A DNA stretch of 38,580 nt, from positions 1 through 38,580 of IMG/VR virus record IMGVR_UViG_3300036987_000521, one strand, 5' to 3'. This document shows, one piece after another, positions 1,276-38,580 of the stretch (position 1 is the stretch's first letter; each line of letters opens with the position of its first letter). Under the pieces are notes generated by a model, which was not told where the DNA came from, searched no databases, and was given only the letters and a program-made list of their open reading frames with translations. The stretch comes from a virus. Its lineage: Duplodnaviria; Caudoviricetes. Position numbers and translations under genes: made by a program.

Positions 1276-1413
1276 ATGCCAAAACGCAAACGCAAGAAGC
1301 TCTTTCCGCTGCCCGCGCCCCAGCCGAGCGCCGACCACGGCCGGCTGCTGCGCGTGTTGGCGAAGCTGCTGCGCCAGATCGCCGACGAGTTGACGCGCAT
1401 CGCCGACGGTTAG
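1276..1413 (+). CDS. 45-aa SOS-regulated small protein, candidate antirepressor
   Basis: GAGG RBS then MPKRKRKKLFPLPAPQPSADHGRLLRVLAKLLRQIADELTRIADG*; absent from the ORF track. Confidence 0.65.
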   Translation: MPKRKRKKLFPLPAPQPSADHGRLLRVLAKLLRQIADELTRIADG

Positions 1414-1676
1414 GCCGGGACGGCCGCCGGGTGGGGTGCGCGCCGGCGCCGGGGCTGCGGCCCGGCCTGGTAGATGACGGGCCGATAGCGCGCGGGCGGC
1501 ACGGGCAGCCCGCTCTCCTGGGCGACGGCCAGCCAGGCGGCTTTCGCCAGCTCGAGTTCGGCCAGGGCCGCGGCCGGCGTGGGGCCGAAGGCGGCGCAGG
1601 CGACCAGGTCGGGGATGTCGGCGATGTAGCCGGCGTCTTCCGGGCTGTAGAAGATGTTGATGTGGTAGTCGTTCAT
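1410..1676 (-). CDS. hicB: HicB-family antitoxin, orphan, downstream of the repressor
   Basis: Close paralogue of 1..306; GAGGGG RBS; no HicA adjacent. Confidence 0.8.
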   Translation of the reverse strand: MNDYHINIFYSPEDAGYIADIPDLVACAAFGPTPAAALAELELAKAAWLAVAQESGLPVPPARYRPVIYQAGPQPRRRRAPHPAAVPA

Positions 1677-1687
1677 GGTTCGTCCCC

Positions 1688-2014
1688 TCAATCCCCCTGG
1701 GCCATGCTGCGCACCAGGCGCAGGAGCATGGCGCGCGCTTCGGCGCCGCCCACGCCCCGGTAGCGGGCGAGCAGTTCGCCTTCGTCGGCGCTGAGGCCCG
1801 TGTCCAGCCCCAGAAAGTATTCTACCGGCCGGCCGAGGATGCGCGCAAGCTGGAAGACATGCTCTATCGAGAAGGGGAAGCGGCCTCGTTCGTAATGGCT
1901 GTAGCTCTGATACTCCAAAGATAATCCCTTCGCCACTTCGGAACGATCCATACCGGCATCTTCGCGCGCCCGGATAACCCGCTTTCGCAATTCATCTTCC
2001 CGTCTGGTCAGCAT
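1688..2014 (-). CDS. XRE/CI-like HTH repressor without S24 autocleavage domain
   Basis: IRAREDAGMDRSEVAKGL...SYSHYERG...VEYFLG; divergent from the cro-like gene. Confidence 0.85.
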   Translation of the reverse strand: MLTRREDELRKRVIRAREDAGMDRSEVAKGLSLEYQSYSHYERGRFPFSIEHVFQLARILGRPVEYFLGLDTGLSADEGELLARYRGVGGAEARAMLLRLVRSMAQGD

Positions 2015-9888: not shown

Positions 9889-10851
9889 ATGGCGTTCAAG
9901 AAGTTGGATCCGACGGTGTATCCGCGGCGGTTGTGGAGTTTGGTGGGGTTTCCGGGCAGCGGGAAGTCCACGTTTGCGATGCGGTTGCGCGGGCCGCTGC
10001 TGGTGATTGATGCCGACCATCGGGTCGACGAGGTGGCGCGGCTGGCGCCGGGCGGGGTGTATCAGCTCTCGGCGCGGCCGGCGGATAATGTGGACGCGGA
10101 GCGGATTGCGGCCTGTCTGCGCCAGAATATGCCGGATGCGGACATCGGGACGGTGGTGGTGGATTCGCTGACGGCGATCCTGGCGCCGCTGGTGACGGAG
10201 GCGATCCTGGCGAACGATGCGGGCCGGAATAAGAACCGGATGGCGGCGTTCAAGACGAAGGCGCTGGCGCTGCGGTTGCTGCAGGATATGGTGGGGGCGT
10301 GGGGGACGGATGTGCTGTACATCTATCACTGGCAGCAGGGCCGGGATGCGAGCGCGAACGAAGTGGTGACGGCGACGATCAGCCGGACGGAGCTGGCGCG
10401 GCTGCAACGCTCGATCAATGTGCAGCTTTCGATCGTCGAGGATGGGGCGCGGCGGGGGATCCACGTGGACTGGGCGCGGCAGGGGCGCAGTGAGCTGACG
10501 CTGTGGGATGCGTCGGGCACGTGGGCGGGGCTGCCGGAGCAGTTGGAGGCGGCGATCTACGGCGGTTTGAGCGCGGACGAGCAGGCGCGGCTGGCGCAGG
10601 CGACGCCGAAGGGGTTTACGAGCGCGGCGGCGGCGATTGCGTGGGGGGAAGCGCAGCAGGGGGTGTTCGAGGCGCTGGCCCATGCGCGCAATGCGTATGA
10701 CATGGTGAAGGAGCGCGAGCAGCCGCCGAATGCGCCGGCGATGTGGGAGGCGTGGATTGCGGAGGTGCTGGCGCGCAAGGCGGCGCAGGCGGCGGCCGCA
10801 GCGCAGGCGTCCGCCGCAGTGCCGCCGCCTGCGGCGGACGGGCAATTCTGA
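9889..10851 (+). CDS. AAA/RecA-fold P-loop ATPase (Sak4-like recombinase candidate)
   Basis: GFPGSGKS Walker A, LVIDAD, VVVDSLT Walker B; GGAGG RBS. Confidence 0.75.
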   Translation: MAFKKLDPTVYPRRLWSLVGFPGSGKSTFAMRLRGPLLVIDADHRVDEVARLAPGGVYQLSARPADNVDAERIAACLRQNMPDADIGTVVVDSLTAILAPLVTEAILANDAGRNKNRMAAFKTKALALRLLQDMVGAWGTDVLYIYHWQQGRDASANEVVTATISRTELARLQRSINVQLSIVEDGARRGIHVDWARQGRSELTLWDASGTWAGLPEQLEAAIYGGLSADEQARLAQATPKGFTSAAAAIAWGEAQQGVFEALAHARNAYDMVKEREQPPNAPAMWEAWIAEVLARKAAQAAAAAQASAAVPPPAADGQF

Positions 10852-11735: not shown

Positions 11736-11927
11736 ATGGATTACGCGCAGCGGCTGCGGTTGCGGGCCAGGTTGCAGCGGTGCGGGATGCCGGCGGTGCT
11801 GGATGAGATCGTGCGGCTGGGGGCGGCGGTGGAGCAGTTGACGGCGTTGGTGGCCGGGGCCCGGGGTCAGGAGTCGGGGGGCGGCGTGCCCGGCCTGCGG
11901 CGGGACGGTGGGGCGGGATCCCGGTGA
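11736..11927 (+). CDS. Hypothetical protein
   Basis: RBS; coupled to neighbours. Confidence 0.5.
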   Translation: MDYAQRLRLRARLQRCGMPAVLDEIVRLGAAVEQLTALVAGARGQESGGGVPGLRRDGGAGSR

Positions 11928-12627: not shown

Positions 12628-13074
12628 ATGTCTATTACAGGGGCTGACACGATGTTGGACACACGGAATTTCGAGACGCTTACGGTGCAGGGGGTGGAGA
12701 TCCCGATTGCGGCGGCATTGGATCGGCACGGGCGGCCGGCGCCATTGATCGGCGACCGGGAACCGGCGGCGTGCGATCACGCAGGGATGACCTGGAGCAG
12801 TGAGCTGGATCTGCGGTGTGCGCGCTGCGGCGCACGGTTGTTTCTGCCGCCGCGTACGCTGGCGCTGCTTGGCGAGCAACAGATCGAGGCAATGCACCGG
12901 CTCTGGCACGCGGCTGGCTGGCCGGTTTGGGCAAAAGATCATTGGTATGACATTCGGCCGGAACGCTGGATTTTGCACGAGCAGCCACTTTTTGCGCGCT
13001 GCTGTGGTGTGATCCCGGTGCGACATGATCAAGAAGCCATGTTTGCGGCTGCGCTACAGGCGATTGCGTTATGA
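12628..13074 (+). CDS. Hypothetical protein with Cys motifs (start may be 12652)
   Basis: CDH...CARC...CCG. Confidence 0.55.
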   Translation: MSITGADTMLDTRNFETLTVQGVEIPIAAALDRHGRPAPLIGDREPAACDHAGMTWSSELDLRCARCGARLFLPPRTLALLGEQQIEAMHRLWHAAGWPVWAKDHWYDIRPERWILHEQPLFARCCGVIPVRHDQEAMFAAALQAIAL

Positions 13075-13178
13075 TCGGCGATGCGCTGCTGGTGCTGGCG
13101 CTCGGTGCGCTGGTGGTCGTGTGGCGAGCAGGGCGGCCACGGGCGGCCGGCCGGCGGCGCATGATCCGGTTCGATTGA
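13071..13178 (+). CDS. 35-aa single-TM peptide
   Basis: ATGA overlap; MIGDALLVLALGALVVVWRAGRPRAAGRRRMIRFD*. Confidence 0.5.
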   Translation: MIGDALLVLALGALVVVWRAGRPRAAGRRRMIRFD

Positions 13179-13197
13179 GGGGGCAATGATGGACGGC
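13121..13197 (+). repeat. 77-bp direct repeat (second copy 15177-15253)
   Basis: Exact duplication GTGGCGAGCAGGG...AATGATGGACGGC flanking the cassette array. Confidence 0.95.
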
Positions 13198-13386
13198 CGA
13201 CGGCGGTGGCGACGCAATTGGAGCCGACGGCGCAGGGGTGGCAGGTGGTCGCTGCCGGCGGGCCGTGCAGCGGGCAGGGCGGGTGTGAGTGCGCGGCGGA
13301 TGATGACGCCGTGTTTGCGGATGCCAGTGGGGAATTAGGCGGACGGAATCCGTCTAAGAGTAGTTAGGACGAAACCTACCGCCGAC

Positions 13387-13413
13387 AAACAAAGGCCCGC
13401 CGTGGGGCGGGCC
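13387..13413 (-). terminator. Intrinsic terminator of the reverse-oriented cassette operon
   Basis: GGCCCGCC-N4-GGCGGGCC stem followed by TTTGTTT on the minus strand. Confidence 0.65.
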
Positions 13414-13435
13414 AGTCATCGAGGAGTGTCGCGCT

Positions 13436-13804
13436 CTACTCAAACAATCGTCGGCGTACCAGGTCGCTCATATCGCCGCCGGTCTCCTGGTCGGCCATCT
13501 GCTGGAGCCGGTCGCGTTCCGCCTCAGTCATGCGCACCCGCAGCATGAACGAGCGAGGCGCATCCTCGGTGAGCGTGGGCGCTGCGGCTAGTTTCATCTC
13601 ACGGCGCACCTCGTCGGTGGTCAGGTTGTCGCCGTACCTGGTGTGCAGGTCGCGGGCAAGGTCTCGAAATTCATTTGTGCCATGCTGCTCAGCCTCGCAA
13701 AAACCAAAACGGGCAGCATACACAGCAGCGGCGGCCAGGGTAAACCCGACGCCGGCGTTTGGGTTGCGGTCGAGGAGATCACGGTAGTGACGAGCGTTTC
13801 TCAT
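13436..13804 (-). CDS. Protein with C-terminal RHH/MobC-like DNA-binding domain (cassette 1)
   Basis: SFMLRVRMTEAERDRLQQMADQETGGDMSDLVRRRL; GAGG RBS. Confidence 0.7.
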   Translation of the reverse strand: MRNARHYRDLLDRNPNAGVGFTLAAAAVYAARFGFCEAEQHGTNEFRDLARDLHTRYGDNLTTDEVRREMKLAAAPTLTEDAPRSFMLRVRMTEAERDRLQQMADQETGGDMSDLVRRRLFE

Positions 13805-13860
13805 GGAATCCTCTCTGATGGCCTATTATGGCCCGACCAGCGGGGTATGAGTGATGACGG

Positions 13861-14178
13861 TCAATTGCTCATGCGGTCGTAGCAGCTATCACACGCTGTT
13901 CCTCGTGCGCTGGTCATCGGGAATGCTGTCATGTGTCCGCAGTCGGCACGTTTCAGAGTGGGGCCGGATTTCGGGGCCGGCTTGGGTGCGATTTTGGCCG
14001 AGCGACGGGTTTTGATCTGGCTGATGACCTCATGGTATCGGGGTGTGACCTGGATTCCAGCCATCCAGGGGTCAAAATACGGGAGACCATCTGCCAGCCA
14101 TTCAATCTCGGTAGCGGTCAGGGCTGCGATTTGCTCATCTGTATAGGTCAGCACTGCGTTGATGGTGGGGTTTGCCAT
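13861..14178 (-). CDS. Hypothetical protein with C-terminal Cys cluster (cassette 1)
   Basis: AGGAG RBS; CGH...CDSC. Confidence 0.7.
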   Translation of the reverse strand: MANPTINAVLTYTDEQIAALTATEIEWLADGLPYFDPWMAGIQVTPRYHEVISQIKTRRSAKIAPKPAPKSGPTLKRADCGHMTAFPMTSARGTACDSCYDRMSN

Positions 14179-14233
14179 TGGATCATCTCCTGTTGATCTG
14201 ATGGGCCGTGGCCCGTTTGCTGTTTCAATGATT

Positions 14234-14264
14234 ACATTGTAGCACAGTGTTGCTACAATGTCAA
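14234..14264 (-). promoter_or_regulatory. Promoter with palindromic operator
   Basis: TTGACA-N17-TACAAT on the minus strand; inverted repeat ACATTGTAGCA-N6-TGCTACAATGT spans it. Confidence 0.8.
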
Positions 14265-14345
14265 GTACCTGAATCTGACGATTACCCTACGAACTTTGTG
14301 ACGATCTTTCACAAACGGGCCGGCCGCAATGGGGGCCGGTTTCGT

Positions 14346-14454
14346 TCCTAACAACGGGTTCCACCTGACCGGCGAGCTGGCCGGTTTACAAACAGATTTC
14401 GGATTCGGGGGAGACTCGCCGGAACCGCCGGCAGGTGAACCCTAGACGTTAGGC
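14346..14454 (+). other. attC recombination site 1
   Basis: R'' TCCTAAC, 5-nt spacer, L'' GTTCCAC...; L' GGTGAAC, R' GTTAGGC; arms pair with extrahelical C and A (G and T on the bottom strand). Confidence 0.85.
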
Positions 14455-14478
14455 GGACTACCACCGAGGATGTAACTC

Positions 14479-14757
14479 ATGGCGTGGTACAAAATTTATC
14501 CCAAATTGCCAGCAGAGGAATTCACCTACGAGAACAGCGGTGTGAAGTCCGGATTTCCACCGCCATACCGAGAGGTTTTCGTTGAGCACACCTATGACGT
14601 GACGGGAATCGTGGGCGAGTACGGCAACGAACAGCTTTACACGGTTGTGGGGTACTCGCTCGATATGCCGTTCCGTCCAAAATACAATTCGGTCGCCATC
14701 ATGTTCGAGGAACGTGGCACATTTGAGAAAATGTGGTGGCATTTCCCGTCCGCCTAA
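14479..14757 (+). CDS. Hypothetical cassette protein (cassette 2)
   Basis: GAGG RBS just after R'; stop TAA lies within R'' GCCTAAC; lower GC than neighbours. Confidence 0.75.
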   Translation: MAWYKIYPKLPAEEFTYENSGVKSGFPPPYREVFVEHTYDVTGIVGEYGNEQLYTVVGYSLDMPFRPKYNSVAIMFEERGTFEKMWWHFPSA

Positions 14758-14842
14758 CACTGCGTCCAGCCGACCGCCTGTCAGTCGCCGCGGCGGACGG
14801 CACGAAAACGACACCGGCGGCGGCTGAACAGCACCGTTAGGC
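14752..14842 (+). other. attC recombination site 2
   Basis: GCCTAAC-ACTGC-GTCCAGCCGACCGCC ... GGCGGCGGCTGAAC-AGCACC-GTTAGGC; L'' slightly degenerate. Confidence 0.82.
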
Positions 14843-14849
14843 GGACTAC

Positions 14850-15122
14850 ATGAACACAGAATGTCGTATCACCCAACCAGACAGCAATCAATGGCTGCGC
14901 ATCGCTGATTTGATAGCACGCCTCGAAACGATTAAGGCCCAGTATGGCAATCTGCTGTGCTATATCTACAGTGCGGATCAGCGCGCCAGTGTGCCGCTGC
15001 TCGATCTGTGTCTGTCGCCAGGTCGCACGCTCAACATTGCGGCGCAGATCGGCACAGTTTGCGATGAGATGTATTTCGACCTGCTGGTGGAAATTGAGCG
15101 GTTGCGGGAGCTGGCCGTCTAA
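14850..15122 (+). CDS. Hypothetical cassette protein (cassette 3)
   Basis: ATG 7 nt after R'; stop TAA within GTCTAAC. Confidence 0.7.
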   Translation: MNTECRITQPDSNQWLRIADLIARLETIKAQYGNLLCYIYSADQRASVPLLDLCLSPGRTLNIAAQIGTVCDEMYFDLLVEIERLRELAV

Positions 15123-15241
15123 CCCTGCGTTAACTCGCCACCGTGGCGAGGTTGTGGACGACGGGAGAGATGGACGGTGGCGAGCAGGGCGGCCACGGGC
15201 GGCCGGCCGGCGGCGCATGATCCGGTTCGATTGAGGGGGCA

Positions 15242-15670
15242 ATGATGGACGGCTATCTGATGTTGGCGCTCATCACCAACTTCGCCATGATGATGGGCGG
15301 CATCGGTGGGGCCTGCGGGTATGCGTTGGCGTTGACGGCGCAGCGGCGGATCGAGCGCCGGATTTTTGTGGCGGTCGAGGCGGCGCCGATCACGGCGCAT
15401 GTGACGGCGCCCGCGGTGGTGGATGTGCCAGTGATGTTGCACATCCCGCCCATTGCGCCGCTGACGGTGCCGATTGTGCTGGCGGCACCGCCCAGTGTGG
15501 CGGAACTGGCCGAGCGGGTGCTGGCCGAGACGCCGGAGTTGGGGCCGGATGCGCTGGCCCGGATCGTCGGGTGCGCAGAGGATACGGCGTACGCGTTGAT
15601 CCTCGACTGGCGGGATGCGCAGGGGCTGGTCGCGGAAGGGGCGCCGGTGCGCGAGGAGTTGACCGGCTGA
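15242..15670 (+). CDS. Membrane-anchored protein with C-terminal HTH-like segment
   Basis: N-terminal TM; LGPDALARIVGCAEDTAYALI. Confidence 0.65.
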   Translation: MMDGYLMLALITNFAMMMGGIGGACGYALALTAQRRIERRIFVAVEAAPITAHVTAPAVVDVPVMLHIPPIAPLTVPIVLAAPPSVAELAERVLAETPELGPDALARIVGCAEDTAYALILDWRDAQGLVAEGAPVREELTG

Positions 15671-31469: not shown

Positions 31470-32846
31470 ATGGGAACACTCGCACTACGCATGATCCGCG
31501 GCGATACGGCCGTCTTTCCGTTTCCGTACACAGGCGCGGCGCCGGTGGCGCTGCGTTTTTATGTGCGGAAGCAGGTGGACGGGCAGGTGTTGGTGGCGTT
31601 GACGCTGGCGGCGCAGCCGTCACGGTTCACGGTGGCGGAGGATGCGATCGCCGTGGCGCTGCTGCCGGCGGATACTGAGGGGCAGCCGGCGTGCGGGTAT
31701 CAGGCGTGGGTGTATGATCTGGAGGTGACCGACACCGATGGCGTGGTGACGACGGTCTGGGGCGGACCGTTCGAGCTGGTGGGGGATGTGGCGGCCGGGG
31801 ATGTGGTCGATCCGGCGGTGATCGCGCCGTTGTTGGGGGTGACGGTGGCCGAGCGGGCCGGCCTGGATGCGGCCGCGGCGCCGGGGACGCTCAATCCGCT
31901 GATTACGGCGAGCGCGCTGGCGGCCGAGTTGGCGGACTATGCGCCGGATGACCACACGCACGGGGGCGGGGATGTGACCTCGGCGGTGGCGAGTGCGACG
32001 GACGCCGACACGGTAGACGGGGAGCACGCGAGCGCCTTCGCCGACGCCAGCCACACGCACGGGGGCGGCGATGTGACCTCGGCGGTGGCGAGTGCGACGG
32101 ACGCCGACACGGTAGACGGGGCGCACGCCAGTGCCTTCGCCGACGCCAGCCACACGCATGGGGGCGGGGATGTGACCTCGGCGGTGGCGAATGCGACGGA
32201 CGCCGACACGGTAGACGGGGCGCACGCCAGTGCGTTTGCGGATGCCAGCCATACGCACGGGGGCGGGGATGTGACCTCGGCGGTGGCGAGTGCGACGGAT
32301 GCCGATACGGTAGACGGGGCGCACGCCAGTGCGTTTGCGGATGCCAGCCACAGCCATGCCGGGGCGGGGAGCGCAGACCGGGAGTTCTGCTTCGTTGCGG
32401 AGTTCGCCGGGGCGGTGTTGGCGGCCGATGGCGGCGATAATGTCGGGACGCTGACGGCGGCGCATGATGCGACGGATCATCGCAATTATTACGACTGGAC
32501 GACGGCCGAGGCGAGCACGCAGGATTATGATCTGGTGCTGCAGTGGCGGTTGCCGCCGGAGTTCAGCGGTTGGCGGGCCGGGGACGCGAACGTGTATGTG
32601 ACGAGCCGGGTGAGCGCGACGCCGGGCGCGACGGGGGTGCGGGTGGTGGAGTTCCTGGATGCGGGCGGGACGAATCGGATTACGGCGGCGACGAAGCAGA
32701 ATGCCGCCTGGACGGCCGATGCGTTCGCGATTAGCGGCGGGACGTGGGCGGCGGGGGACCTGGTGACGCTGCGGGTGCGGCTGCTGGCGGATGCGGGGAA
32801 GGCGGCGCAGTTGCACGGGGTGCGGTTGCCGTGGACGGCGGTGTGA
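31470..32846 (+). CDS. Baseplate-upper/tail fibre protein with four 33-aa repeats
   Basis: IRGDT...YDLEV...G.F N-terminal domain; 99-bp repeats HTHGGGDVTSAVASATDADTVDGAHASAFADAS at 31953-32350. Confidence 0.75.
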   Translation: MGTLALRMIRGDTAVFPFPYTGAAPVALRFYVRKQVDGQVLVALTLAAQPSRFTVAEDAIAVALLPADTEGQPACGYQAWVYDLEVTDTDGVVTTVWGGPFELVGDVAAGDVVDPAVIAPLLGVTVAERAGLDAAAAPGTLNPLITASALAAELADYAPDDHTHGGGDVTSAVASATDADTVDGEHASAFADASHTHGGGDVTSAVASATDADTVDGAHASAFADASHTHGGGDVTSAVANATDADTVDGAHASAFADASHTHGGGDVTSAVASATDADTVDGAHASAFADASHSHAGAGSADREFCFVAEFAGAVLAADGGDNVGTLTAAHDATDHRNYYDWTTAEASTQDYDLVLQWRLPPEFSGWRAGDANVYVTSRVSATPGATGVRVVEFLDAGGTNRITAATKQNAAWTADAFAISGGTWAAGDLVTLRVRLLADAGKAAQLHGVRLPWTAV

Positions 32847-34289: not shown

Positions 34290-36644
34290 ATGTGGATTGA
34301 CATCGAGGACCGCGCGGGGAACCGGTTGGGCGCGGGGCCGATTGTGACGGCGACGGGGTGGACGCACACGCGGCGGCTCGATCAGGCCGGGACGTTTTCG
34401 TTCCAGATGCCGGTGAGCGATGCGCGCAGCGCGTTGGCGCAGGTGAAGCGGGTGGCGCGCTGCTGGACTGTCGAAAACGGGACGACGCGTGAGTTGGGCG
34501 CGGGGATCATCGAGCGCCGGCAGTTGACCGTCAAGGCGGACGGTGCGACGTTGCTGGAGGTTTCCGGCGCCGATCTGTTGCGCGAGCTGGCCTATCGCAA
34601 TGTCGGCGAGCTGAACCTGTTCACGACCTGCCGGGAACATCCGGCCGGCGTCATGCTGTTGACCGTGGATCCGCCGGCGACGCTGAGCGAAGCCGCGTGG
34701 ACCGATGGCGCGGTGGGCGATACGGCTACGGCCGCGACGGTGCCCAGCCTGGACGCCGGCGGCGCGCAGTTCCTCTATGTGTCGGCCGGCCGCCAGTTCA
34801 ACAAGCTGCATTTTGTGCTCAGTAGCGGGCAGAGCGTGGTCACGGATCTGCATGTGCAGTACTTCGATGCGGAGAGCGCCGGCTGGAACGATGTGACAAT
34901 TGTCGAAGATACGACGGCGGTGGGCGGTGCGCCGCTGGCGCAGTCGGGCTATCTGACCTGGGATGCGCCGGTGGGGTGGATCACGGAGACGACAACGGAC
35001 ACGCCGGTCTATGATATCCGTATTTTCCCGGATGCGACGTTGGGCGATGTCGGGCTGGCGGATGTTAGCATCGCGTATGATGCGCCGACCGAGACGGCGC
35101 TGTCAACGCTCATGGCGCTGGCGCCCAGTGGGTGGAGCCTCGATACGGTGGCGGGCTACGCTGAGACGCAGCCGGCGCAGGAGATCGGGGCGAACCGGGT
35201 CGCGAACGGCGATTTCGCCGCGTACACGGGCACGCTCGATGACGGGAATAGCGACACGTTTACGGCCTGGACGAATGCCGATGTGGACGATCCCAACGGC
35301 GATACGGTCGAAGCGGTGGCCGGCGGCAGCGGCGCGGTGTGGTTGAAGATCAGCACGGGGGGCACGACGGGGGCACGGCCCAGCGTGGGACAGGCATTGA
35401 CCGTGACGCCGGGGACGGATTATCTGCTGACCTTTTGGAACAAGGGGGACGGCAGCGGCGGGGCGGGGGCCTGGCGGCTGTACGACGAAGCGGGCGGCAC
35501 GGCGTTGAGCGCGTTGACGGAGACGGGCAATGCGACGACGACCTGGACCCCGGCCCGCATCCGGTTCACGGCGCCGGCCAATCGCACGACGGTGTATCTG
35601 CGGCTGTGGGGGCCGGCGGCGGACGATCCGGGGGCGGCCTGGTTCCACACGGTCAGCGTTAAGCAGCGGCTCGGCGGCGAGGTGTATTTGACGCTGAACG
35701 GCGAGACGGTGCTCGAGGCGCTGAATCGGCTCAGTGAGCAGACGGGCGAGCACTTTATATTGGGCAGCGGACGGCAGGTGCGTTGGCTGCGCAGTGATGC
35801 CACGGCAACGGGTGTGCGCCTGACCACGGGCGGCGCGCTGGCCGGCGCAGACGATGCGCGCACGGCCTGGCTGGTGAGCCTGGATGAGGTGCTGGATGCG
35901 TATGACCTGGTCAGCCGGGTCTATCCGTTGGGCGGCGGCACGGGCCAGAACCGGGTGGATCTGACCCACTGCACGCGGCCGGCGCCGGACGGTTATACGC
36001 TCGATCTGACGGCGGGCTATTTGGAGCGCGATGCGGCGGTGACGGCGCTGGGGCGCATTGACTATCGGTTGGATTTCCCCGACATCAATGCGGCGGCGCC
36101 CGATGCTACGCAATTGGCGTTTGCGGCGAACAGCCTGCTCGAGCGGGCGTATGTCTGGCTGAAGCGCCACAGTGCGACTTCGACGGATCCATTGACCGGC
36201 GATGCGCCCCGCGCGTATCGGGCGACGGTCGTCAAGTTGCTGCAAGCCGTGCTGCCCGGCTACACCGTCCACCTGGCGTATCGGGAGGTGTGCGCGGGCG
36301 TGGTCACGGTGCAGATCGCCCAGGACGTGTGTGTGTTGAGCAGCACGGTGCAGGTGGATGGGCGCGGCGTGCGCACGGTGGCGCTGGAGTTGGGGACGGT
36401 AGATCAGCCGTTGGGCAGCGATACGGAGTTGCTGGCCTATATCCTGCGCCAGCAGCGGGCGAGTCGGGCGCAGACGCCGGCCAACGAACATTATAGTTCG
36501 TCGGGCGCGGGGGTGATCGTCGGTGCGGGGGTGCGCAATGGCCGGGTGACGGGGGTCGTGCGGCGGCTGGGGATTACGGAAGACGTGCCGGCGACGGCCA
36601 CGTTGCAGGTGCGCAATGGCGTGGTGACGGGGTATACTACGTAA
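34290..36644 (+). CDS. Tail hub/Tal-like host-specificity protein with carbohydrate-binding insert
   Basis: TRRLDQAGTFSF, LVSRVYPLGG hub motifs; NGDFA...QALTVTPGTDYLLTFW...RFTAP CBM4/9-like insert. Confidence 0.75.
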   Translation: MWIDIEDRAGNRLGAGPIVTATGWTHTRRLDQAGTFSFQMPVSDARSALAQVKRVARCWTVENGTTRELGAGIIERRQLTVKADGATLLEVSGADLLRELAYRNVGELNLFTTCREHPAGVMLLTVDPPATLSEAAWTDGAVGDTATAATVPSLDAGGAQFLYVSAGRQFNKLHFVLSSGQSVVTDLHVQYFDAESAGWNDVTIVEDTTAVGGAPLAQSGYLTWDAPVGWITETTTDTPVYDIRIFPDATLGDVGLADVSIAYDAPTETALSTLMALAPSGWSLDTVAGYAETQPAQEIGANRVANGDFAAYTGTLDDGNSDTFTAWTNADVDDPNGDTVEAVAGGSGAVWLKISTGGTTGARPSVGQALTVTPGTDYLLTFWNKGDGSGGAGAWRLYDEAGGTALSALTETGNATTTWTPARIRFTAPANRTTVYLRLWGPAADDPGAAWFHTVSVKQRLGGEVYLTLNGETVLEALNRLSEQTGEHFILGSGRQVRWLRSDATATGVRLTTGGALAGADDARTAWLVSLDEVLDAYDLVSRVYPLGGGTGQNRVDLTHCTRPAPDGYTLDLTAGYLERDAAVTALGRIDYRLDFPDINAAAPDATQLAFAANSLLERAYVWLKRHSATSTDPLTGDAPRAYRATVVKLLQAVLPGYTVHLAYREVCAGVVTVQIAQDVCVLSSTVQVDGRGVRTVALELGTVDQPLGSDTELLAYILRQQRASRAQTPANEHYSSSGAGVIVGAGVRNGRVTGVVRRLGITEDVPATATLQVRNGVVTGYTT

Positions 36645-37399
36645 TGGCCTATAAGCGGGTGCTGTTTGTGGCGCCGGGAGATAGCGGGCTGGATGTGCTG
36701 CCGGAGATTGATGCGCTGTATGAGTTGGGGTATCAGACGCAATCGTTGCAGGGGCGGGTGACGCGGCAGCGGTTGTTCGATGCGGTGCGGCGGCAGGAGT
36801 TCGATGTGATCCACGTGGCGGCGCATATCGGGCCGGCGGGGGTGCAACTGTCGGACGGGGAGCTGCTGGATGGGCCGGCGCTGGTGCAGGTGGCGCGCTC
36901 GTGCAAGGCGACGCTGGTGTTTCTGAATGGCTGCGAGAGCGCGGAGCTGGGGCAAATGCTGGTGGATGACGATGTGCCGGCGGTGATTTGCACGTTGGCG
37001 ACAGCGCCGGATGTGGTGGCGAAGGAGACGGCGCAGACGTTCTATCGGTTGCTGGTGCGGCACGAGGATCTCCGCCAGGCGTATCACGATAGTAAGCCGG
37101 CGGCGCTGCGGGGCGGGTATACGTTCCTGTCGGACGGCAAGCTGATCGAGATGCAGTTCGGGCCGATCATCAGCCGGCTGGATCTGTTGGCGCAGGCGCA
37201 GACGCAGGATGCGGTGGAGCACGCCGATTTCCGCAAGCTCCTCGCCGATATTTGCATCGAGCTGGGGGCGTTCCGGGAGATCGCCGGGAACCTGGGGCGG
37301 TTCAAGAGTTCAATGATCTGGGTGCTGGTGGTGGGGCTGACCGGTTCGCTGGCGGTGCAACTGCTGATGACGTTCATTGGCCGGGATCTGGTGCGGTGA
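36644..37399 (+). CDS. CHAT-domain (caspase-like) protein with C-terminal TM helix
   Basis: LDVLPEI, FDVIHVAAH, LVFLNGCES, AQTFYR motifs; TM IWVLVVGLTGSLAVQLLMTFI. Confidence 0.75.
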   Translation: MAYKRVLFVAPGDSGLDVLPEIDALYELGYQTQSLQGRVTRQRLFDAVRRQEFDVIHVAAHIGPAGVQLSDGELLDGPALVQVARSCKATLVFLNGCESAELGQMLVDDDVPAVICTLATAPDVVAKETAQTFYRLLVRHEDLRQAYHDSKPAALRGGYTFLSDGKLIEMQFGPIISRLDLLAQAQTQDAVEHADFRKLLADICIELGAFREIAGNLGRFKSSMIWVLVVGLTGSLAVQLLMTFIGRDLVR

Positions 37400-37710
37400 G
37401 CGAGCCGGTGGCGCTGCTGCTGGCGTTCGGCTTTGGGCTGGCGTACAATGCGCTGCTGACCCGGCGGATGGCGGCCGACGGCGGGCGGCCGCGGCCGATG
37501 GCGTTGTGGGTGGTCGGCGGGGTGCTGGCGACGTTGGCGCTGTCGGCGCTGGTGGAGCACCAGACGATCCGCCTGGTGCTCCACTGGCAGGGGCGGCCGA
37601 TCCAACTGACGAATGCGCAACATGCGGCGTTGTTCGAGTTGCGCTTTTTTGTGGCGACCGGTGCGCCGCTGGCGGCCGGGAGTTTGTGGCGCTATTGGCA
37701 GCGTTTATAG
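37396..37710 (+). CDS. Three-TM membrane protein, holin-like
   Basis: GTGA overlap with the CHAT gene; 104 aa, three hydrophobic segments; last late gene. Confidence 0.6.
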   Translation: MSEPVALLLAFGFGLAYNALLTRRMAADGGRPRPMALWVVGGVLATLALSALVEHQTIRLVLHWQGRPIQLTNAQHAALFELRFFVATGAPLAAGSLWRYWQRL

Positions 37711-38580
37711 TTGGTGATCTACGGGGCCGTGTTCCTGGTGGGCGGTGGCCCGGTCGGTGTCAACGAGGGCCAGGTAGCTGCGGAGCACTTCCAGGGTGGT
37801 GTGGCCCAGCATGGACTGCAGGATGTAGATGTTCATGCCGGAACGCAGGCTCCACAGGGCGAAGGTGCGGCGGAAGGTGTGGGGGTGGCAGTGGGCGACG
37901 CCGGCGCGCCGGCCGATGCGCTGGCAGGTCTTGAGGAGCAGGTTGCGGGTGAAGGGGCGGGCGTCGGTGGTGGTGAAGAGCGGGCCGGTCGTGCGGCCCA
38001 GCAGATGTTTGAGCACCTCGCGCTTGGTGCGGGCGCCGATGTAGGTGGTGCGGGGCTTGCCGCCCTTGCCCGCGCGCACGCGGACGGCGCCGGTGGCGAG
38101 ATCCACGTCGGGGACGGTGAGGGCGCAGAGTTCGGAGGCCCGGACGCCGGAATCTATGAGGAAGAGCAGCAGCGTCTTGTCACGGGCGTTGGCGGCGGCG
38201 GCCAGCAGTTTGCGGAAGTCGTCACGGGTGAAGGCGGGGCCGATGGCTTTGCCGGGCGGTGGGATGGTGACGTTGCGCAGGGGGTCGGTGGTCAGCAGGT
38301 CTTCGGCGGTGAGGAAGCGCAGCCAGGCGCGCAGGGCGCGGCCGTAGTCGTGGACGGTCCAGGCGGTGTATTGGCGCTCGGCGAGGTCGCGCAGGTAGCT
38401 GCGGATGAGTTGGGGCGTGATTTCGTCGGCATAGAAGACGCCGTGATCGTGGAGCCAGGCGTTGGCGCGGGTGAGCAGGTCGCGATAGTTTTCGATGGTG
38501 CGCGGGGCGCGGCGCTCGGCGCGTTTGGCGTCGAGGAACAGGTCGAGGGCGGTGGCGAGGGGCAGGCGGACAGGTGGCAT
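37705..38580 (-). CDS. int: Tyrosine integrase (XerC/D-like)
   Basis: DSGVRASEL, GKGGK, HTFRR, LGH, catalytic Y; lacks the IntI-specific insertion. Confidence 0.95.
   Translation of the reverse strand: MPPVRLPLATALDLFLDAKRAERRAPRTIENYRDLLTRANAWLHDHGVFYADEITPQLIRSYLRDLAERQYTAWTVHDYGRALRAWLRFLTAEDLLTTDPLRNVTIPPPGKAIGPAFTRDDFRKLLAAAANARDKTLLLFLIDSGVRASELCALTVPDVDLATGAVRVRAGKGGKPRTTYIGARTKREVLKHLLGRTTGPLFTTTDARPFTRNLLLKTCQRIGRRAGVAHCHPHTFRRTFALWSLRSGMNIYILQSMLGHTTLEVLRSYLALVDTDRATAHQEHGPVDHQL

Follow-up and report, generated by a model that had tools for sequence, protein, structure and literature searches.

A predicted attI-headed cassette array in a temperate phage contig with no recognised integron integrase gene

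The phage contig and its cassette array

The window analysed here is the whole 38.6-kb contig (38,580 bases) of a tailed temperate phage, whose gene set includes a repressor, ParB, a Sak4-like protein (9889-10851), terminase, portal, capsid and tail genes. The features that matter for the present analysis are the following, with the strand in brackets.

13121-13197 (+): copy 1 of a perfect 77-base direct repeat
13198-13335 (+): flank of 138 bases, 72% GC, its origin without match
13336-13369 (+): predicted attI-type site, with the inverted pair TAGGCGGA-N5-TCCGTCTAA, a 5-base spacer, the crossover between G13363 and T13364, and the R box GTTAGGA
13364-14448 (+): cassette 1, 1085 bases, its start complementing its own R'' end; carries two genes in a reversed operon that has its own promoter and terminator
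13394-13413 (-): terminator-like hairpin behind the 122-aa gene
13436-13804 (-): 122-aa protein of cassette 1, with a conserved N-terminal domain (residues ~1-75) and a weakly matched ribbon-helix-helix domain
13861-14178 (-): 105-aa protein, first gene of the reversed operon, no assigned function
14234-14264 (-): promoter TTGACA-17-TACAAT (11/12, extended -10); a perfect inverted repeat of 11 bases overlaps it
14346-14454 (+): attC1, 109 bases, with both extrahelical bases; crossover between G14448 and T
14449-14836 (+): cassette 2, 388 bases; ORF 14479-14757, 92 aa, no assigned function
14752-14842 (+): attC2, 91 bases; crossover between G14836 and T
14837-15188 (+): cassette 3; ORF 14850-15122, 90 aa, no assigned function; probably fixed and not excisable any more
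15117-15188 (+): attC3 remnant, 72 bases; R'' and most of the stem are retained, L'' has lost 5 bases, and phage DNA stands in place of L' and R'
15177-15253 (+): copy 2 of the 77-base repeat, running into the ORF at 15242-15670
37705-38580 (-): phage tyrosine integrase, 291 aa, not an IntI

As the original prediction had stated, the phage integrase lacks the insertion of IntI proteins. An alignment with two IntIs left a gap of ~43 residues opposite the insertion, and the protein reached 70 bits with the integron integrase model TIGR02249, the cut-off of which is 265. Neither a second tyrosine recombinase nor an IntI was found on the contig (54 ORFs scanned for families, 11 in the TIGR02249 scan; 198 ORFs listed), and the intI gene that a complete integron requires beside attI is absent from the window. 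The integrase gene lies far from the array and adjoins, on the circularised map, a tRNA piece (336-396; the sole match in an Rfam search of the window), as prophage integrases do. Named relatives of the integrase amounted to 2 among the 120 listed, both from Caldilineales, with 43-46% identity. Because the named homologues are Caldilineales, we infer a host from the Chloroflexota, of the Anaerolineae/Caldilineales type.

The tRNA piece is located between two HicB-like ORFs (1-306 and 1410-1691, minus strand) that have 33- and 34-base exact repeats in common, possibly the result of a duplication near the attachment site. A protein with a CHAT (caspase-like) domain is encoded behind the tail genes (36644-37399, plus strand) and has a 33% homologue in the complete phage G002. 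Tandem heptamer repeats are scattered over the contig (4174-4260, 8582-8660, 15976-16062, 22196-22274, 23804-23900, 25594-25650 and 26671-26770), and a tail protein gene (31956-32350) contains internal repeats of ~99 bases.

The original prediction of two attC-shaped sites was verified in its coordinates and motifs. Both attC1 and attC2 show an R'' box RYYYAAC, an R' box GTTRRRY, an L''/L' inverted repeat and a length within 57-141 bases; the R'' box of attC1 starts with T, which is a one-base departure. A covariance model trained on 28 attC sites from contigs other than the window recognised attC1 with 67.8 bits (E 1.6e-14) and attC2 with 48.8 bits (E 6.6e-10). The score of attC1 is not fully independent, since part of the pattern by which the training sites had been retrieved came from attC1 itself. 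The plus strand was preferred, and the model found no further site in the window under E 0.8. The bottom strands of both sites folded into R-box/L-box hairpins. For attC2, none of 200 shuffled sequences was as stable (z -6.1), and for attC1 the signal was weak, with 8/200 shuffles as stable (z -2.2). The canonical pair of extrahelical bases ascribed to the first site is present in the attC1 fold; the minimum-energy fold of attC2 has the second extrahelical base only, with a G-T wobble in place of the first. Related contigs carry sites 90-92% identical to attC1 (L137 and L152) and 85-86% identical to attC2 over 76-80 bases (L144, L157 and L181), and compensatory L-box changes occur in this attC family, in 10 of the 28 sites at one pair. 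The two sites lie ~300 bases apart with no intI nearby, as in a CALIN. Judged by its predicted sites, the array is a genuine CALIN in a phage, with an attI in addition.

Each cassette start complements its own end as claimed, including the 1-nt indel of cassette 1, the first crossover G being at 13363. The stops of the ORFs in cassettes 2 and 3, expected in R'', indeed fall in its TAA. Both cassettes are in canonical orientation relative to their sites, and the same site family occurs beside true IntI genes; the array does not bear the marks of a Xer-type integron-like system (genes reversed to the sites, or a Xer-like enzyme). The GC content of cassettes 1-3 is 56-58% vs 67% for the contig.

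The 105-aa protein of cassette 1 had no PHROG, Pfam or NCBIfam match. The 122-aa protein matched PF21983 below the cut-off (E 2e-4) and has 133 relatives, some of which are fused to RHH, HTH, AT-hook or Cro-like parts. Its predicted model (pLDDT 91.6) gave no fold match, and a scan of viral sequences with the protein gave no match either. It is likely autoregulatory, with the 11-base inverted repeat over the promoter as a likely operator. The proteins of cassettes 2 and 3 had no family match, and their Atlas leads all stayed <0.9; the cassette 2 protein has one 86% homologue, and an identical protein is listed on a 67.7-kb contig. Cassette 2 homologues lie on two contigs in all, of 48 and 68 kb (P0001 and P0257).

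The attI-type site and the ends of the array

Two features went beyond the original prediction. One is the attI-type site (13336-13369); the other is the direct repeat, whose two 77-base copies (13121-13197 = 15177-15253) match perfectly. The attI-type site aligns with the insertion site of a complete integron, L182, and with 10 sites in 9 other contigs, in which the same motif heads cassettes and which include two complete phages without IntI. L182 carries four copies of TAGGCGGA-N5-TCCGTCTA upstream of its intI. The fourth and last copy is followed by GTT, and the R'' of the first cassette complements that crossover, as read from the sequence. The IntI of L182 is 81-88% identical to proteins named as Chloroflexi/Caldilinea integrases; its more distant named matches are mostly from Chloroflexota/Anaerolineae, with one from Desulfomonilaceae.

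The window site has an L and an R box, a G/TT crossover at the head of the array and a complementary R'' in the first cassette. The motif adjoins a cognate intI in one complete integron, L182, the single intI-linked example on which the attI identity rests. The motif pattern had 0 matches in 816 kb of control loci and 0 in 200 resampled windows, and the exact pattern was absent from 5 further sequence sets. The motif was also absent upstream of five other intI-like matches (non-Chloroflexota or unplaced) and in L196-L198. We conclude that 13336-13369 is a predicted attI-type site of a Chloroflexota-type integron. The spacer after TAA is 5 bases long in the window and 6 in G002, L195 and L152, with an equivalent spacer in L182, and the activity of the window site may differ owing to this one-base-shorter spacer.

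A consensus scan revealed no sigma-70-like site on the plus strand upstream of 13363, where a Pc promoter would be expected. The ORF 13206-13367 runs through the 138-base flank and has its stop within the R box of the attI-type site; no credible homologue of this flank (13198-13335) was found among the fetched loci. Elsewhere, an attI unit lies directly behind the G/TT crossover of an attC (L193:1025-1055 and L171:2638-2660), as if attI had moved as a tiny cassette, and an attC with a symmetrical L box and without the first extrahelical base stands behind the second attI of another phage (L200:7405-7506).

Copy 1 of the 77-base repeat covers the end of a 35-aa membrane ORF (13071-13178) as well as the start of the following gene with its ribosome site. 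Since 77 is a common k-mer size, an assembly artefact was considered. It was ruled out by the independent unitig graph of run X1 (possibly the source run), in which the repeat forms its own unitig at twofold depth, 21.3x vs 10.9-12.7x for the insert and the flanks; it is also countered by X2 and X5 pieces in which the end of the repeat continues either into the insert or into the flank on the right. As neither terminal inverted repeats nor a transposase were seen, we also rejected a transposon that had duplicated its target. An X6 contig joins the right end of the array to the left end, which would fit an excised 2-kb circle, but its depth is 3.5x and both flanks have gaps, making tip clipping possible; we did not count it as evidence.

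The attC3 remnant ends at a 12-base microhomology (15177-15188). The third site had been described as truncated and as consisting of R'', a spacer and GTTAAC only. The truncation stands; the restriction to these elements does not, as attC homology continues from the R'' box at 15117 to 15188. The remnant is 83-85% identical to sites in L093 and L180 over 75-77 columns (alignment with L093 2948-3043), and a 96-base attC of G002 matches the window at 15117-15188. With this full attC homologue at hand, we dropped the idea of a 19-base site of R'', spacer and GTT made by a crossover at L''. Without L' and R', the remnant lacks the full anatomy of an attC, and it gave neither R-box pairing in the fold nor a covariance-model match. 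The simplest reading is that a microhomology recombination would have inserted a 2,056-base block with duplication, or joined two sibling genomes; the array thus likely arrived, or was trimmed, by an event of this kind.

Cassette turnover in related loci

A metagenome scan for the attC right arm yielded 68 stretches in 60 loci. A profile of the window gene at 11924 found four viral contigs, G002, G030, G031 and G032; a viral scan with that gene alone gave no match. In the complete phage G002, an attI variant is accompanied by 6 attC sites. G030 carries two attI sites, and the model recognised 5 attC in it. The complete phage G031 contains one cassette, with an attI and a degraded attC that the model missed, whereas G032 has neither attI nor attC. 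As G002 and G031 had first been reached via site patterns, the unbiased count of arrays is 1/2. No IntI was found in any of the four contigs. The array lies downstream of gene 11924 in the window and upstream of its homologue in G002, G030 and G031. The best PHROG match was a DNA methyltransferase family for 16/91 ORFs from related arrays and their flanks. Several loci can be assigned to phages by their terminase, replication initiator, ParB and tail matches; many of the others are short, and gene content was the only basis for calling them phage-like.

The comparison of related loci for turnover at G/TT, proposed with the original prediction, revealed such switches. L137 and L184, one pair of short contigs whose phage origin was deduced from gene content, have ~88 bases of flank and an identical attI in common and diverge after GTTAG. 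L156 and L175 have exactly one cassette in common, the shared stretch running from -3 to +4 relative to its two crossovers, and differ in what adjoins it on either side. Among 11 attI sites compared, only L184 and L193 have a first cassette in common. In 32 phage-like loci, in which shared blocks of >=200 bases and >=90% identity were counted, 11/23 internal homology ends lay <=10 bases from G/TT in both partners, corresponding to ~7 independent cassettes. Across all 61 loci, after four duplicates had been dropped, 14/39 ends fell within 25 bases of G/TT, compared with a null mean of 1.9 and a maximum of 7; the loci had been chosen by the attC right-arm pattern, so right-hand ends could also stem from homologous recombination there. 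Some attC sites are chimeric, three left ends fall at R'' and two further ends lie within attC, which points to homologous exchange in attC as well. The switches in L137/L184 and L156/L175 are hard to explain by homologous exchange in an attC arm, as judged from these alignments.

A comparison of 35 phage-like sequences (window included) with 11 chromosome-like loci gave 168 matches, the longest of which, 119 bases, is of attC size. No cassette body was common to the phage-like sequences and the 49 kb of chromosome-like DNA; in this small sample, the two cassette pools look separate. No other cassette order or empty site of the window phage appeared in 7 sequencing runs. In X1, a single unbranched unitig covers the array and neither an excised nor a reordered form was seen, in contigs that drop rare variants; the other six runs contained only identical fragments of it. 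Terminase relatives (56-74% identical) showed no convincing attC in 80 loci by a heuristic search or in 36 of them by the model, and are too distant to serve as empty-site controls. IntI matches reached via relatives of G006 and G007 were 53-56% only.

In L137, L152, L156, L163, L184 and others, many methyltransferase ORFs extend across the attC as far as the vicinity of R', so that the attC also codes for protein there; the stops in the window lie in R''. The contig L097, which belongs to a genome (G006) titled Chlorobiaceae, has the same attC type and a homologue of gene 11924, and may be a prophage or a mis-binned phage.

Possible routes of cassette exchange

The array comprises an attI-type site, two intact and one broken attC and self-complementary cassette ends, with no IntI. 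We hold it probable that a host IntI inserts cassettes into this attI-headed three-cassette array, and removes them, in trans. The host would belong to a Chloroflexota group whose members carry IntI, as the homologue names suggest. Its IntI would recombine the folded attC bottom strands with the short attI at G/TT, which is what the related contigs point to, and the first cassette would thereby change from one lineage to another, with further swaps probably arising where similar attC arms recombine. One microhomology event would have brought in or trimmed the array, duplicating 77 bases and cutting attC3 and leaving cassettes 1 and 2 and attI as the only parts still active. The cargo would be phage accessory genes: in the relatives, many orphan DNA methyltransferases that may counter host restriction, and in the window, a putatively self-regulated two-gene operon and two small proteins without assigned function. 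The forward cassettes would depend on phage transcription, no Pc promoter having been recognised. The gain and loss of genes through a host IntI, as originally predicted, has thus received comparative support from the attI-type site, the switches at G/TT and the IntI-less complete phages, and stays conditional; the ends of the array, for their part, carry the traces of a microhomology event not due to IntI.

This event also speaks for a different history, in which illegitimate recombination brought in attI and the cassettes as one block that has ceased to be a substrate of IntI in the window phage. The 77-base duplication, the cut through attC3, the lack of variants in the sequencing runs and the position of the array on the other side of gene 11924 compared with G002, G030 and G031 would all fit. 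Yet attI, attC1 and attC2 are intact, the cassette ends are still complementary, the cargo looks like that of a phage, with no cassette body in common with the 11 chromosome-like loci, and relatives show turnover at the same kind of site, which makes such a frozen state unlikely. Still less probable, in our estimate, is that IntI has little role and that the sites serve mainly as short homology linkers for phage recombination by the Sak4-like protein or host RecA. Phage annealing proteins tolerate short or imperfect homology, a Sak4-like gene is present in the window, some attC are chimeric and 5/23 homology ends lie either at R'' or within attC. This does not easily explain, however, why L137 and L184 switch 4 bases past G/TT at attI, and the compensatory L-box changes (10/28 sites at one pair) and the very presence of attI would find no explanation. 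It is highly improbable that the sites are substrates of the tyrosine integrase encoded by the phage itself or of a second Xer-like phage recombinase: a non-IntI recombinase gene does lie ~600 bases upstream of one attI in L200, but a true IntI integron has matching sites, the recombinases of phages with arrays are divergent (26% between the window and G002), and the window integrase resides far from the array, beside the tRNA piece like a prophage integrase.

Clusters of attC in phages that can be recombined by IntI1 are already known. Seventeen phage CALINs have been reported, some with methyltransferase cargo, and IntI1 recombined 5/6 tested sites (Qi, 2023; PMC9892861). The window resembles them in having at least two canonical attC in a phage without intI. 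It differs in that its attI sits in an IntI-less phage and its relatives differ at G/TT, while that report shows no cassette turnover among related phages. Its main text names no Chloroflexota phage that we found, and 'Chloroflex' does not occur in the one supplement searched. The same report describes the cryptic Shewanella prophage M16-3, which has its own intI and an attI heading a CALIN, and proposes that phages capture CALINs by illegitimate or homologous events (PMC9892861). According to a review, CALINs can be mobilised in trans (PMC11389934). With chromosomal integrons and CALINs, whose carriers include Chloroflexi (Cury et al., 2016; PMC4889954), the array has the attC anatomy and orientation in common, and its attI is of the L182 type. 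Unlike them, it has neither intI nor a recognised Pc promoter, its attI is a single 28-34 base unit vs four iterated units in L182, and its cassette pool looked separate from the chromosome-like loci fetched. In clinical class 1 and 2 integrons, a shortened delta-attI was recombined by IntI1 and cassettes with truncated attC exist (PMC12901181); the short attI and cut attC of the window, and the attI directly behind an attC crossover in L193, are reminiscent of these, although attC3 was cut at a microhomology with phage DNA and not fused to the next cassette. In the literature searched, mostly outside the subscription journals, we found no report of attI-headed, IntI-less (Chloroflexota) phage arrays or of turnover between related phages.

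Phage morons are accessory operons with their own promoter and terminator. Cassette 1, a reversed self-contained operon with a probable autoregulator, is built like a moron, as is a cassette in G002, but it is bounded by integron recombination sites. Integrons are now viewed, in two preprints, as stores of anti-phage defence. Phages that keep a host-type attI and use the host integrase to refresh counter-defence genes would, if our reading is true, turn the integron machinery around, and the use of CALINs in trans would become testable with defined sites.

How cassettes form de novo is described as 'largely unknown' (PMC5371416), and phage-type cassettes offer material for this question. A near-identical 95-base attC lies behind two unrelated genes in L157 and L181 (L181:5929-6023), with identity from the R'' box on, which suggests grafting onto new genes or exchange inside attC. 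Together with attC that often overlap gene ends and with methyltransferases and self-regulated operons in cassette form, this raises the tentative idea that Chloroflexota phages possess integrase-less integrons of their own, with a minimal mobile attI and a phage-specific pool of cassettes made by grafting host-type attC onto ordinary phage genes; if true, the de novo formation of cassettes could be traced in this case. Several IMG/VR contigs (L081-L090) also contain attC-like sites in long rows, with a near-identical 87-base site in five of them.
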